Assembly: GCA_043810925.1 (NCBI GenBank)
Contig: JBDRNT010000095.1
Span: 1 to 31,630, forward strand
Direction of reading: 5' to 3'
DNA length: 31,630 bases
Source: Candidatus Eiseniibacteriota bacterium
Lineage (GTDB): Bacteria; Arandabacterota; Arandabacteria; Arandabacterales; Arandabacteraceae
The position numbers and the translations under genes were made by a program. The notes beneath the pieces were generated by a model. The model made no database searches and was not told the origin of the DNA. It saw only the letters and a program-made list of their open reading frames with translations. This document shows, piece by piece, positions 1 to 8,483 of the stretch. Every line of letters begins with the position of its first letter. The stretch's first letter is position 1.

Positions 1-71
1 CGCCCATCGCCTTCCACAACACCAATACGGGTGTTGCTTGAATGAACATCCAATCCACCGTATAATTCCAT
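1..71 (-). CDS. IS110-family transposase/recombinase, N-terminal fragment (runs off the left edge)
   Basis: Reverse complement of 71..1 reads ATG-initiated MELYGGLDVHSSNTRIGVVEGDG, matching the IS110 DEDD N-terminal pattern Y-x-G-[IL]-D-[VL]-H. A strong RBS AAGGAGGTG lies just upstream. Only 23 codons are visible and the ORF track omits it. Confidence 0.75.
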   Translation of the reverse strand, partial: MELYGGLDVHSSNTRIGVVEGDG

Positions 72-160
72 AGGGCACCTCCTTTGGTTGGTGGTAAACC
101 AGAGCATACCAGAGAGAAATCTCTCTTGGAATACTCTGGAGGTGCCTCTTTATGATTATC
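1..160 (-). mobile_element. Left end of a putative IS110-family element
   Basis: About 90 nt non-coding leader with nested hairpins: GGCACCTCC 74-82 / GGAGGTGCC 138-146 and AGAGAG 111-116 / CTCTCT 121-126. It ends abruptly at TC 159-160, where the inverted-repeat arm begins. Confidence 0.6.
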
Positions 161-264
161 AGGCTTTGAATTCTGGAATTCTGGAATTCTTGGTCTCACG
201 GTGTCATCGCAAAATCCCGGGGGGAGCGCAGAGACCCTGCAGAATTCCAGAATTCAAAGCCTGA
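159..264. repeat. 25-bp perfect inverted repeat (MITE/REP-like palindrome)
   Basis: TCAGGCTTTGAATTCTGGAATTCTG (159-183) is the exact reverse complement of 240-264. Inner GGTCTC (192-197) / GAGACC (231-236) also pair. The left arm contains tandem GAATTCTG units. Confidence 0.9.
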
Positions 265-293
265 CCCCAGTGGTGAACCAGGGTTGGCCCCAC

Positions 294-322
294 TTGACGC
301 GCGGTGGGATTGGGTTTAGGAT
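294..322 (+). promoter_or_regulatory. Putative sigma70 promoter of the sulfatase gene
   Basis: TTGACG (294-299), 17 nt, TAGGAT (317-322). The ATG follows at 329. Confidence 0.55.
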
Positions 323-328
323 AAGACC

Positions 329-2161
329 ATGCTTAAGCATCTTTGGCGGACACGCATTGTCATCGCATGGCTTGCCGCTACCCTCCTGCTTCAACTTGGA
401 TGCGGCAGGCACGAAAAGCCCCAGTACTTCATAGTGATTCTGATGGATGCGGTCAGACCCGACCATCTCGGCTGCTATGGCTACAAGAGAGACACAAGTC
501 CCCGGATAGACCGCCTGGCCGCGGACGGGGTGGTTTTCGAAAACGCCATAGCCGAGGCGCCCTGGACCCTCCCTTCCATTGCCACCATTCTCTCATCCAC
601 TTTCCCGTGCCAGCACGGGGCGAAGCGTGTAGAGGGTGCGAATGTGGGAATGAAGGACAGAGAGATCACGTTTGTTGAGCTGCTTGCACAGGCCGGGTAC
701 AAGACCTGCGCGATGAGTACGGCAAAGATATTCAATCCCAATCTGGGGCTGTCACAGGGTTTTGACGAGAGCATCGTCGTGGGTAAGACGGGGAGTGTAC
801 TTGAGAAAGTCGCCGCAATCGAGCTGAGTGATGCAGCCATAACATGGCTCCGTCAGAACCGCGGCCACAAGTGCTTCCTTTTTATCCATCACTACGACAC
901 GCATTACCCTTACAAGGCCGGCGAGCAGTGTGTGAGCAAGTTCAATCCTGGCTATGAGGGCCCGTACCGTATGAGATTCGGGGACAGCTCGCTGCGCATC
1001 CTCAAGATGGCCAGAGCAGGCAGGTTGGCCGAGGCCGTCGATCTTACGGATGCCGATGTGGAGCAGATCAAGACCCTCTATGATTGCGAGATAGTCCGGA
1101 CAGACAAGGCCATAGGCAACCTGGTTGACTCACTCTCGGCATGGGGCTGCCTTAAGAAGTCCATGATCCTGATATCGGCGGATCACGGAGAGGAGTTCCT
1201 CGAACGGGGAAGCCTTGATCACGGACAGACGGTCTATGATGAAAGCATAAGGGTACCGCTCGTTATCTACGGTCCGCGAGTGGTCGACGAGACAGGCAGG
1301 ATCGACCAGCAGGTTGGTCTCATTGATTTCGGTCCGACCATCCTCAGTGCCGCCGGAATCGAGATACCCCCGGAATTCGAGGGAGCGAGCCTGCTACCGC
1401 ATCTTTCTTCCAGGTTCAAGACACAGCAGGAACAACTCAGGCCATCCGGGCTGCCGTTTTCCTGCCTGGTGTCAGAGGCCATAGCTCACAGACCGGAGAA
1501 GAAGGCGCTCCGATGCCCGCCATGGAAGCTGATATACGATCCATTCTTCGGAGCTCGAGAGCTCTACAACCTCGAACGGGATCCCGGGGAGACCGAGAAC
1601 ATCATAGAGGTGGAAGCCGAGGTCGCGTCCGATCTCACCGACATCCTCCTGACGTCGCTCCAGACTTACTACTCCGGCGGCTGGTGCATCGCCTGGCGCA
1701 ACCCCGAAGGCAAGGGCACCATACGGGGTAATCTCGAGTTGAACTCCGCCATGATCGAGGTCGTGGGACACAACCTCTACCCTGCGTTCGATCCTGCGGT
1801 GGATTCACTGACCATATCTCATGATCGCACGCGTCTGAGTTTCGGAAGCATGCTCGAAAAGCGCTGGGAAGGAGTCGAAGTCAGAATGCCGTCCCGCCAG
1901 AGGGCGACGATCGATATCGTCATAAGCGGCTCAGGGGGATTCGAGACCCTGGTAGGTCAGACTCCAAGAGAACTCACGTTTCCTGCCACGCTCAATCCCG
2001 AGTCCGCGGAGGTTGGTCGAGACCAGCTCCACACCCTCTTCAGGCAGGATAAGGCCGACCTCGTCATCTTCTGGATCGACCCCGGCAGCCAGCCGATGGC
2101 AAGAGATGAAAAGCAGGAAGAGCTCAGACGGAAACTCAAGGCCATAGGCTATATAGACTGA
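329..2161 (+). CDS. Sulfatase-like hydrolase (alkaline phosphatase superfamily), probable lipoprotein, with extra C-terminal domain
   Basis: Lipobox LLQLGC. Motifs ILMDAVRPDHLGCYGY, APWTLPS, HHYDTHYPY, SADHGEEF, DHG..VYDESIRVPL, ELYNLERDPGE and tail LKAIGYI. Confidence 0.9.
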   Translation: MLKHLWRTRIVIAWLAATLLLQLGCGRHEKPQYFIVILMDAVRPDHLGCYGYKRDTSPRIDRLAADGVVFENAIAEAPWTLPSIATILSSTFPCQHGAKRVEGANVGMKDREITFVELLAQAGYKTCAMSTAKIFNPNLGLSQGFDESIVVGKTGSVLEKVAAIELSDAAITWLRQNRGHKCFLFIHHYDTHYPYKAGEQCVSKFNPGYEGPYRMRFGDSSLRILKMARAGRLAEAVDLTDADVEQIKTLYDCEIVRTDKAIGNLVDSLSAWGCLKKSMILISADHGEEFLERGSLDHGQTVYDESIRVPLVIYGPRVVDETGRIDQQVGLIDFGPTILSAAGIEIPPEFEGASLLPHLSSRFKTQQEQLRPSGLPFSCLVSEAIAHRPEKKALRCPPWKLIYDPFFGARELYNLERDPGETENIIEVEAEVASDLTDILLTSLQTYYSGGWCIAWRNPEGKGTIRGNLELNSAMIEVVGHNLYPAFDPAVDSLTISHDRTRLSFGSMLEKRWEGVEVRMPSRQRATIDIVISGSGGFETLVGQTPRELTFPATLNPESAEVGRDQLHTLFRQDKADLVIFWIDPGSQPMARDEKQEELRRKLKAIGYID

Positions 2162-6243: not shown

Positions 6244-6272
6244 AGGTTACTCGAATTCGCGTATTGCTTCAA
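6244..6272 (-). promoter_or_regulatory. Putative sigma70 promoter of the ABC-2 operon
   Basis: TTGAAG, 17 nt, TAACCT on the minus strand. Confidence 0.45.
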
Positions 6273-6330
6273 GCAAACTTCTCTCGACCGGCCCCTCTCC
6301 CATCCAGTGCCCCCCTCCCTCGCCCTGCCT

Positions 6331-7008
6331 TCACCCGGTCGTAAAGGTGAGCATCCACCTGCGAAGGACATCATGCTCACGATACTCCATGTCATCAGCC
6401 AACCCGCTGAGTACCTCGCGAAGCTCCTCCTCGGTCGGAAAGTTCTTAACGACTTCGAAGACTTCGCCATCAGGGAAATCCCGTCTGTGAATAAGATTTC
6501 CGTCATCGTCGTAGTGTGAAAACCACCGGTTGAGTTCCTCACTCGGAAGCATGTCTATGACTATCACCCTCGAACGCGGACGAAGCCGGTCCTTCAAACC
6601 CGCAACGAACGACCGGAGCGCCGCCTTCGGAATGTGTGACCACCAGTCCGCGGCGAATGCTGCATCAAATGACCCATCGATCTTCCCCAGATCGTACGCG
6701 TCGGCAACCTCGAACCGGACCCGGTCGTTGTCATATGTCTTCGTGCGTGCCATCCCGATTATGGTCGAGTTGACATCTGTGGCCACGACCGACCGTGCCC
6801 GCTTTGCGAGAACCTGGGTCCAGTTACCGGTTCCGCACGCGATCTCAAGCACCTCCCTGCCCCTCACATCGGCTTCAAACCACTCGATCATGGGACCCAG
6901 CAATCTTTCCATCTCTATGTTGCCCGTGTAGCCCATGAAGTAGTCGTGCTCAGGCGCACGTTTGGCATAGTACGCATTCATGTGCCTTATGAGATCCCCG
7001 GTGTTCAT
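6331..7008 (-). CDS. Class I SAM-dependent methyltransferase
   Basis: YYAKRAPE, motif I VLEIACGTG, WWSHIP, VVKNFP. Confidence 0.9.
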   Translation of the reverse strand: MNTGDLIRHMNAYYAKRAPEHDYFMGYTGNIEMERLLGPMIEWFEADVRGREVLEIACGTGNWTQVLAKRARSVVATDVNSTIIGMARTKTYDNDRVRFEVADAYDLGKIDGSFDAAFAADWWSHIPKAALRSFVAGLKDRLRPRSRVIVIDMLPSEELNRWFSHYDDDGNLIHRRDFPDGEVFEVVKNFPTEEELREVLSGLADDMEYREHDVLRRWMLTFTTG

Positions 7009-7061
7009 CCTGCAACTCCTGTTTCATCAATCATACGCCGGATGGACGAGGTCCCGGCGGC

Positions 7062-8483
7062 TCAGTCATGGCGCAGGGCCTCAACGGGGTCTACGCGGGA
7101 GGCCCGAACGGCCGGATACAGACCGGCTGCGAGACTCACCACAATTGAAAACGCGATCGCCCCGAGGATCAGCCAGGCGGGGAAGTAGAACATATTGACC
7201 GAAGGCAGGTCCTCAGGCATCAGATGGGCGTTGACGACGAGATTGGCGACACGCGTTACGGCCCAACCCAGAACAAGACCGAATGCGGCACCGATGACCC
7301 CGATGGTCGCAGCCTCAACGAAAAAGATCATCCTGATCTCCCCCTCGCTCCCACCGATCGCCTTCATTATACCGATCTCACGCGTCCGCTCGAGAATCGA
7401 CATCACCATGGTGTTGGCGATACCCAGAGCGGCGACCACGAGTGCAATGGTTCCGACAGCTCCAAGGATCGAATCGACGATGAGAAAAGCCCGCCTGATT
7501 TCTTTGAGCTCATCGGAAATCGAAACAACATTGAGTCCCATGCTCTCAAGTTGCTCTCTCACAGGCTTCATGTCCGCCATACGTTTGACCCGAACATAAA
7601 GTGAACTGTAGGTGCCGTCATCACCGCGACCGCGCAGAAGATCCCAGACGCTCGAGAACCCCAATCTCGGGATTCGTTCCGCCGTCTTCGTGGGGACTAT
7701 CACCCCGCCTCTGAACCTGCTTTCCGAGAACTGGCTCGGTTGCTCAAGCACACCACACAGTCGAAGTTCGGTCGTTGATTCCGTGAAAGGCCTGCCGCCG
7801 GACCGAAGAAAAGTGCCCATCGGATCCGAACGCATCCTGTCGACATCGAGCACGGCGGATACTATCTCCACCTGCGAGCCGATTATGGAATCAGGATCGA
7901 GCACGGTCGTTGTTTCGGATGAGTACGCCCCGGAAGAATCAGCTGAATCCCGGTCTTCGGCCTCCCTGTTCATCCTCTGGAGAGTCTCCCAACGCAGGAC
8001 CACGGCCGCTGCTGAGTCGTCTGCGAAGAACTCGCCGGCCGCTAACTCGCTGAACGGTCTATACTCTCCCATCACCGCGGGTAACGCCTCGAGCGTTGTT
8101 GCGGTTTCCTGACCGTTTATCCGGATCTTGACGGGAAAACTGATCTCGGGAAACGCGATCTCCACTCCGTCAATATTCTTGATATCCGCCAGTGTCGAAT
8201 CGGTCAGTCTTGTGGCCGGCTTTTTTAATGACTCGGCAATGTTTTCAATCCCGCCGTGCGCCACCTCCTCCACGTCTATCTTCACGGCGGTTACAAAAAG
8301 ACTGGTGAAAAGATCGTTCTCCTTGAAAGCTTCTGTGATGTTCTTCTGCATGCCTGTACCAAAGGACACCATCGAGGTCAGCGCACCGATCCCGATCACC
8401 ACACCGAGGACGGTAAGAGCTGTCCTGAGCTTGGTCCGCCGCAGGTTGTCAAAGCCGAGTTCGAACATATCGAGTAATGTCAT
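7062..8483 (-). CDS. MacB/FtsX-type ABC transporter permease
   Basis: LRTALTVLGVVIG, GIANTMVMSILERTREIGIMKAIG, AGLYPAVRASRVDPVEALR. Confidence 0.93.
   Translation of the reverse strand: MTLLDMFELGFDNLRRTKLRTALTVLGVVIGIGALTSMVSFGTGMQKNITEAFKENDLFTSLFVTAVKIDVEEVAHGGIENIAESLKKPATRLTDSTLADIKNIDGVEIAFPEISFPVKIRINGQETATTLEALPAVMGEYRPFSELAAGEFFADDSAAAVVLRWETLQRMNREAEDRDSADSSGAYSSETTTVLDPDSIIGSQVEIVSAVLDVDRMRSDPMGTFLRSGGRPFTESTTELRLCGVLEQPSQFSESRFRGGVIVPTKTAERIPRLGFSSVWDLLRGRGDDGTYSSLYVRVKRMADMKPVREQLESMGLNVVSISDELKEIRRAFLIVDSILGAVGTIALVVAALGIANTMVMSILERTREIGIMKAIGGSEGEIRMIFFVEAATIGVIGAAFGLVLGWAVTRVANLVVNAHLMPEDLPSVNMFYFPAWLILGAIAFSIVVSLAAGLYPAVRASRVDPVEALRHD

Follow-up and report, generated by a model that had tools for sequence, protein, structure and literature searches.

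A multi-copy IS110-family element with IS1111-type organization, probably RNA-guided, is inserted at the tips of REP-like palindromes

Introduction

RNA-guided recombinases of the IS110 and IS1111 families are under development as programmable DNA-insertion tools, and every clade with a readable guide code extends this toolbox. Insertion at REP sequences has been published for ISPa11, of the IS1111 family, and for IS621 (both treated in PMC11187229), as well as for ISPpu10 (PMC11208160). As presented in PMC11208160, the left end of IS1111 elements is short, the right end is long and contains the RNA, and the subterminal inverted repeats are long, at 7-17 bp. According to PMC11187229, the motif GL-P----S(T)G surrounds the catalytic serine in this family, and its seekRNAs carry the match to the top strand 5´ of the match to the bottom strand. 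For ISPpu9, a small-RNA gene downstream of the recombinase has been described (PMC12288879).

Here, we follow up the start of a 31,630-nucleotide stretch of DNA (the window), which is contig C95 from base 1 in a genome labelled G000. An earlier note on this DNA had proposed an IS110-family recombinase inserted into one arm of a palindromic repeat, as a candidate for a new class of target. We conclude that positions 1-159 are very likely the left end of a multi-copy, REP-tip-inserted and probably RNA-guided element of the IS110 family with IS1111-type organization. The class of target is not new, as REP targeting has been published for ISPa11, IS621 and ISPpu10. The element is a further member of the IS1111/IS110 elements that target REPs, from a clade far from IS4321.

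Results

The left end of the element

The minus strand at the start of the window holds the beginning of an open reading frame with a strong ribosome-binding site, just as the earlier note had seen. Translation from the ATG at 71-69 gives MELYGGLDVHSSNTRIGVVEGDG in a frame that the ORF list shows open at the window start, and 4 nt separate this ATG from the ribosome-binding site on its 5´ side, AAGGAGGTG (complement of 76-84; Table 1). These 23 codons alone, a fragment, gave no Pfam match. Similar left ends occur in 6 of 41 related genomes, this one included, and one, L012, has a complete copy. This copy has the same ends and comprises 86 nt of left end, a frame of 339 aa and 392 nt of non-coding sequence downstream. 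The window residues are identical to the N-terminus of the L012 protein at 18 of 23 positions. That protein matches PF01548 (1.7e-14), PF02371 (1.4e-12) and NF033542 ('IS110 family RNA-guided transposase'; 165.9 bits against a cut-off of 140 bits), which bears out the proposed family.

Table 1. Features at the start of the window
Feature	Position	Strand	Basis or detail
Recombinase gene, first 23 codons (MELYGGLDVHSSNTRIGVVEGDG)	1..71	minus	ORF 3..107, open at 3´ end, exits at contig start
Element left end, 88-nt leader	72..159	minus	Identity with other copies ceases at 159-162
Subterminal inverted repeat, left copy (CATAAAGAGGCACCT, recombinase sense)	140..154	minus	Sequences of both ends
Left arm of REP-like palindrome, tip interrupted	159..183		Missing GGGG(T) lies across the element, on C115
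Crossover (core) dinucleotide, TG in recombinase sense, CA on plus strand	160..161	minus	Also at right-end junction
Palindrome spacer, not conserved between copies	184..239		Spacers of C95, C87, C124, C151 and C60 unrelated
Right arm, intact tip, unoccupied target copy	240..268		AAAGCC 256-261, TG 262-263, ACCCC 264-268

A BLAST search of window 1-330 against the genome found the left end again at five further contig ends (C64, C87, C124, C151 and C60), which brings the total to six. Because these five are 98.6-99.4% identical to the window, the sequence is a real element end and not a chance resemblance. All six copies halt at ...ATGATTAT|CA on the window plus strand, beyond which the flanks diverge; the final base of the element is window position 159, and its outermost bases read ATAATCAT in the recombinase sense.

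The leader contains a subterminal inverted repeat that begins 6 nt from the left tip and has its counterpart 3 nt from the right tip. Read inward, the left CATAAAGAGGCACCT and the right-end CATTAAGAGGCACCT match at 14 of 15 bases, and relatives carry a matching subterminal repeat at both ends. The minus strand of window 60-160 is predicted to fold at -41.8 kcal/mol (z -6.55), into a strong hairpin that pairs the subterminal repeat (GGCACCUCC) with the ribosome-binding site (GGAGGUGCC). Given this pairing, the repeat may also serve as a brake on translation. No stretch matching the target was found in the 88-nt left end, in agreement with the earlier note, which saw no guide there and expected one downstream of the gene; relatives do have target-matching guides in that position.

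The other end and the number of copies

When all contig ends of the assembly were clustered, one group of 15 emerged, made up of the six left ends together with nine others of a distinct type. The latter are the right end of the element: they are 98-100% identical to one another and have distinct flanks, each finishing in ...GGGGTCA| before the common CCCATTAAGAGGCACCTGTCAATAGG... sequence. In the recombinase sense the element thus runs from ATAATCATAAAGAGGCACC... to ...GGTGCCTCTTAATGGG, with TG bordering each end. The genome holds at least nine copies, and the element accounts for the breakpoints of at least 15 contig ends. Its interior is in no contig of the assembly; the left-end pieces extend approximately 160 nt inward, and the longest right-end piece 144 nt, before the contigs break, which is why the element's own recombinase and guides are not seen. 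The right-end contigs occur in two variants, which are distinguished by two neighbouring bases. Five other IS110-family genes in the genome (on C26, C44, C88, C59 and C65) belong to different elements.

The earlier note asked whether the far flank restores the missing tip of the palindrome, and GGGGTCA is indeed found in all nine right flanks. The partner of the window copy was identified by synteny with G001, a genome of the same genus, in which window 288-700 aligns at 83.5% identity and the last 1.4 kb of the C115 flank at 81.6%. The two alignments are collinear and 125 nt apart, with no element there; C115 therefore carries the right end of the window copy. Its flank ends in ...CACTGGGGTCA, followed by 122 nt of element, and joining the C115 and C95 flanks regains the full left arm, GGGGTCAGGCTTTGAATTC....

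A nearly identical 417-nt flank occurs twice in the genome (C101:16936-17514 and C26:16608-17063), with different occupants at one insertion point. C101 has a truncated copy of the window element, 84% identical, and C26 has the last 39 nt of the element followed by the start of an IS481-like gene and another IS110-family gene. Either the bin is a mixture of strains, or the site is duplicated and has been struck repeatedly.

The palindromes are REP-like host repeats

The 25-bp perfect inverted repeat reported where the leader ends is present, with arms at 159-183 and 240-264 that are 25 nt long, 100% complementary and 56 nt apart. The right arm runs into an intact tip, ...AAAGCCTGACCCC (256-268). 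In that sense, the left arm ends in ...AAAGCCTGA followed by TAATCATAAAG, which is element sequence, so the replacement of one tip noted earlier is real.

About 15 uninterrupted members of the window palindrome's family are present in this genome. Pairs of GGGTCAG...CTGACCC with complementary arms number 45, some of them nested or overlapping, so that there are fewer distinct elements. Among the palindrome families, 15 members begin with GGGTCAGGCTTTGAA and 16 with GGGTCAGAGCTAAAA, and there are several minor families besides; at least two families have the element's target at their common tip.

Three Y1-transposase (PF01797) genes are present in the genome. The one on C15 (approximately 6270-7340) encodes a 294-aa Y1 (HUH) transposase of the RAYT type and has two AGCTAAAAA-type tips per side in inverted orientation, with two GGGGTCAGAGCTAAAA tips upstream and two inverted downstream. 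A RAYT gene flanked by its REPs is the usual arrangement, and the C15 enzyme probably spreads one of the palindrome families used by the element. The Y1 genes on C14 and C115 have no such flanks within 1.5 kb, apart from one 7-nt GGGTCAG approximately 1 kb from the C115 gene. The palindromes thus show the hallmarks of REPs and REPINs, namely many intergenic copies, a conserved head and a RAYT-type Y1 gene flanked by them. Because the families have many members and one of them flanks a RAYT-type gene, we take them to be REP/REPIN-like host repeats that lie outside the element.

In G001, two palindromes, from two other families with the same tips, are nested in the orthologous intergenic region (C177; L117), which likewise lies upstream of the sulfatase-like gene. 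As other families occupy the site there, the region is a REP hotspot whose occupants differ between species of one genus. We also considered an attC (integron) reading of the palindromes, suggested by conserved arms and variable centres. It was rejected because the repeats flank the RAYT gene and because their GTC...GAC tips point outward, opposite to the arrangement of attC cores.

Insertion site and crossover core

In this genome, all six left and all nine right junctions lie at one motif in a fixed orientation, in keeping with the claim of site-specific insertion at the CTGACCCC tip of one palindrome arm. Insertion is thus site-specific and orientation-specific, with the core repeated at either junction; the extreme tips of the element lack terminal inverted repeats. 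The insertion point of the window copy is the TG of AAAGCC[TG]ACCCC, at the palindrome tip, upstream of a sulfatase-like gene.

The idea that the palindromic repeat is itself the target stands only in part. The window copy does lie in a palindrome, as do the other copies in the GAATTC-rich family that makes up five of the six left flanks; the C64 flank belongs to the second family (AGCTAAAAA type) and has only the common tip, GGGGTCAG, and other sites show no evident palindrome. The diverged left end on C99 sits in a third palindrome, the flank shared by C101 and C26 has no evident palindrome, and a palindromic partner was found within 320 nt in only 5 of 50 relatives' left flanks. The recognized feature is the tip motif of approximately 10 nt and not the palindrome. 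An 8-nt form of this motif, TGGGGTCA (TGACCCCA on the other strand), occurs in two or three tandem copies, 12-14 nt apart, beside many palindromes, for instance in the right-end flanks of C124, C151, C162, C163 and C45 and to the right of the palindromes on C124, C151, C60 and C64. Being in tandem, it offers several potential landing sites per locus.

The core had been given as GA/TC. It is TG/CA, one base to the left, as the right flanks of relatives that do not begin with A, and the AG and CG pairs of other relatives, reveal. Among the best 80 of 584 relatives (see below), our script recovered 64 loci with the left-end motif and 52 with a credible right end. The left and right junctions carry TG/TG in 41 of these 52, AG/AG in one (L055) and CG/CG in one (L097); they are discordant in four, shifted one base in the register used in four, and lack a flank in one. 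CG on both sides is also found in L109, a copy in the genome G011. Since the right flanks of some relatives start with a base other than A (TCCT.., CC.. or CA..), the shared unit is TG, and in the TGA of this genome the A follows TG by coincidence.

Several relatives (L130, L132, L062, L071, L037 and L093) have a left-junction dinucleotide unlike the right one, for example TG as opposed to CG or CA. In L132 the left dinucleotide fits loop 1 and the right one fits site 3 of the downstream region described below. These cases suggest that, in this clade, the donor core may differ from the target core. L030 and L040 have two tandem copies of the right-end tip (subterminal repeat plus AATGGG) in their right flanks, which looks like the trace of a solo right end that stayed behind or was re-targeted.

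A near-identical target, AGACC[TG]ACCC(C), is found across distant phyla (L020, L038, L049, L052, L058, L066, L085, L091, L096 and others). Conservation of AGACC[TG]ACCCC as a REP head across phyla was considered and rejected: GGGGTCAGG exceeded its reversed control in only two of five host genomes (59 against 18, and 34 against 6), with flat counts in the other three, and most of the sites lack a palindromic partner nearby (5 of 50 left flanks have one).

Relatives of the recombinase and group assignment

A collection scan gave 584 relatives among 599 candidate stretches. We analysed the best 80 of the 584, which are 48-63% identical; their recombinases are 332-347 aa long and their hosts include Nitrospirota, Desulfobacterota, Geobacter relatives, methanotrophs and others. 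The clade recombinase is 21% identical to that of IS4321 from plasmid R751 (residues 5-325, E 2e-6), and the match to the solved IS621 and ISCro4 structures covers the C-terminal domain only (IS621 E 1e-5). The catalytic serine is retained and is followed by N in 46 of 74 relatives; the remainder comprise 14 without a match to the pattern, 10 with TS and 4 with SD. The IS1111 motif GL-P----S(T)G is not found around this serine.

The architecture of the element is IS1111-like. The subterminal repeats, with 14 of 15 bases matching, fall within the 7-17 bp range, and the 88-nt left end is accompanied by a non-coding right end of at least 144 nt, which aligns to the last 144 nt of the 390-400-nt regions of relatives. 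We file the element as IS110 family with IS1111-type organization, without assigning a subgroup. Members of the clade may already be among the ISfinder elements tabulated in the supplements of PMC11187229 and PMC11208160.

An Rfam scan of L012 1450-3060, at E up to 1, matched no family. In metagenomes, the exact 26-nt left end gave 0 matches and a 22-nt left end matched 12 contigs, none of which is this genome's element. The best of these matches were one of 94% over 133 nt, which is truncated, and L136 at 86-88%; L136 is the closest complete relative found (left end 86%, right end 88%).

A candidate guide RNA region downstream of the recombinase gene

Alignments of the relatives' downstream region, approximately 390 nt long, show three conserved sites with variable bases that track the flanks. 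Loop 1, approximately 25-60 nt after the stop codon, is an internal loop with a TGG...CCA hairpin cap and a stem with compensatory changes; its consensus fold has 10 pairs, 8 of them with double compensatory changes. The 5´ side of the loop holds the complement of the 6-8 bases that follow the core on the right, and the 3´ side repeats the core together with the five bases to its left. In L109, GTAGCGT and AGACC-CG face the flanks GAGACC[CG]ACGCTAC with matches of 7/7 and 7/7. The corresponding sequences are TGGGGT and GTACC-TG in L129 and L131 (6/6 and 7/7), GTAGCGT and AGTGG-TG in L130 (7/7 and 7/7), and AATAGGAC and AGAAA-TG in the L022 group. The relatives thus have the layout of seekRNAs and bridge RNAs, in which the top-strand complement is 5´ of the bottom-strand complement and the two overlap at the insertion point.

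Among 39 non-redundant elements, exact guide matches of at least 6 nt to the element's own flank were found in 20 on the left and 11 on the right, as compared with 3.9% (left) and 4.3% (right) for the flanks of elements with other targets. The test did not count G-U pairs, and exact 6-nt matches are absent in about half of the relatives on the left and about 70% on the right. Co-variation of guide and target, core included, is seen in the relatives.

Loop 2, approximately 100 nt beyond loop 1, repeats the match to the left target plus core and complements only the first 2-4 bases of the right target. Site 3, approximately 250 nt after the stop codon, spells out the right-end tip followed by the core and the first two bases of the right target. 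These two bases agree with the flank in 32 of 42 elements; among the 20 elements with a right flank that starts otherwise than with AC, they agree in 10. Some of the disagreeing loci are doubtful right-end calls. No left-end (donor) guide complementary to ATAATCAT was seen by eye in the downstream-region alignments.

The right-end contigs of this genome begin exactly at site 3, which reads ATGGG-TG-AC (tip, core and first two target bases) and fits ACCCC; loops 1 and 2 would fall in the unassembled interior. We infer the guide of the window's own element from its relatives. Near-identical left ends in this genome adjoin two left-target sequences, AAGCC and AGCTC, and since these differ, one guide cannot match both perfectly; the two right-end variants may be two guide variants. 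L136 adjoins TTTTTAGCTC[TG], the flank type of C64, and its left guide, TGATC-TG, matches its own flank at 5 of 7 positions.

Discussion

A model for insertion at REP tips

In the model that we propose, a short left end precedes the gene for a recombinase of approximately 340 aa, a long non-coding region follows it, and the element has subterminal inverted repeats. To judge from homologous elements, the region downstream of the gene would give rise to a structured seek or bridge RNA, in which the 5´ side of an internal loop would pair with the top strand right of the core and the 3´ side with the bottom strand left of the core. Going by the family and the literature, the element would excise to a circle. 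In such a circle, the right end would supply TTGACA, 16 nt from the right tip, the core T would complete a 17-nt spacer, and the core G plus the ATAAT of the left end would form GATAAT, giving a junction promoter for the recombinase. A junction promoter of this kind is formed by ISEc11, as reported in PMC11187229. In the integrated window copy, the corresponding -35 position, counted by hand, reads CAGAAT, and this sequence together with the leader fold would hold expression low until a circle forms. The downstream RNA would then pair with both strands of a REP tip, and the recombinase would exchange strands at TG. For the window's own element, we infer the RNA, the circle and the activity.

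Alternative explanations

Other readings of the locus were weighed against an intact, RNA-guided element with IS1111-type organization. It is unlikely that the window copy is a dead remnant, that is, a solo left end or a truncated gene. Such remnants do exist in the genome: the diverged left end on C99 is 79% identical with no recombinase behind it, the one on C101 is 84% identical and is followed by approximately 25 codons before similarity stops, and C26 retains the last 39 nt. The window copy, in contrast, shows 99% identity to the other five that persists as far as the contig break, shares the break base with C64 and has a matching right end on its syntenic partner contig, C115; contig breaks at both ends are the product of a multi-copy, intact repeat. 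A role for the palindrome in place of the guide, with a protein that recognizes its hairpin selecting the target, is quite improbable. Several insertions are at palindrome tips, and a 2026 preprint describes structure as an extra layer of specificity for ISPpu10. However, insertions also occur without a palindromic partner, as in the C101/C26 flank and in all but the 5 of 50 relatives' left flanks that have one within 320 nt, and the loop sequences of relatives vary with their flanks, core included.

We give hardly any credence to an IS110-group element in the manner of IS621, with a bridge RNA in the left end and hence inside the window. IS621 targets REPs too (cited in PMC11187229) and the left end folds strongly, but it is only 88 nt long, its fold is the leader hairpin of ribosome-binding site and subterminal repeat, it contains no match to the target, and the guides of relatives are in the downstream region of approximately 390 nt. 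It is also highly improbable that the palindrome is part of the element, as a terminal structure or a miniature derivative, and not a host repeat. Although a palindrome directly adjoins the element in five of the six left-end copies, approximately 45 palindrome pairs with the same tips are away from any copy, C64 and C101 have other flanks, one palindrome family lies on both sides of the RAYT-type gene, and the palindrome arms are dissimilar to the element ends.

Significance of the element

REP tips serve as landing pads for the element in this genome, and the element is a natural example of a guide code, CC[TG]ACCCC at REP tips, with relatives that vary both core and guides. The remaining interest is in the distant recombinase clade and in an RNA layout that apparently has three sites. 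We raise tentatively, as a minority possibility, that this layout, with two successive loops and a third site, differs from both the 82-nt seekRNA and the IS621 bridge RNA. If it does, loop 2 and site 3 would represent the product junctions, with their strands exchanged, rather than read the donor, which would be recognized mainly through the long subterminal repeats.

Comparison with known systems

ISPa11 of Pseudomonas aeruginosa resembles the element in its fixed position in REPs, its subterminal inverted repeats and its downstream seekRNA region (PMC11187229); by description, it differs in host phylum, REP family and target motif. ISPpu9 and ISPpu10 of Pseudomonas putida are likewise, by description, multi-copy IS110-family elements in REP sequences.

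With IS621 of E. coli, the element shares a DEDD/Tnp20 recombinase (here seen in the relative L012), a REP target and a dinucleotide core at both junctions, and its relatives share an RNA with internal loops that read both DNA strands. In IS621, however, the RNA is in a long left end and its second loop reads the donor, whereas here the RNA region is downstream, both loops hold matches to the left target plus core (in relatives), and only one donor-matching site was found, the right-end tip plus core.

IS4321 and IS5075, IS1111-family elements that target Tn21-type inverted repeats, are similar in recombinase length (334 aa as compared with 339 aa), in having subterminal repeats and a short left end, and in orientation-specific insertion into one arm of an inverted repeat. 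The clade stands apart from IS4321 in the sequence of the recombinase, with an RKVPSVRLSN-type motif where IS4321 has GLVPRQYSTGG, and with 21% identity overall.
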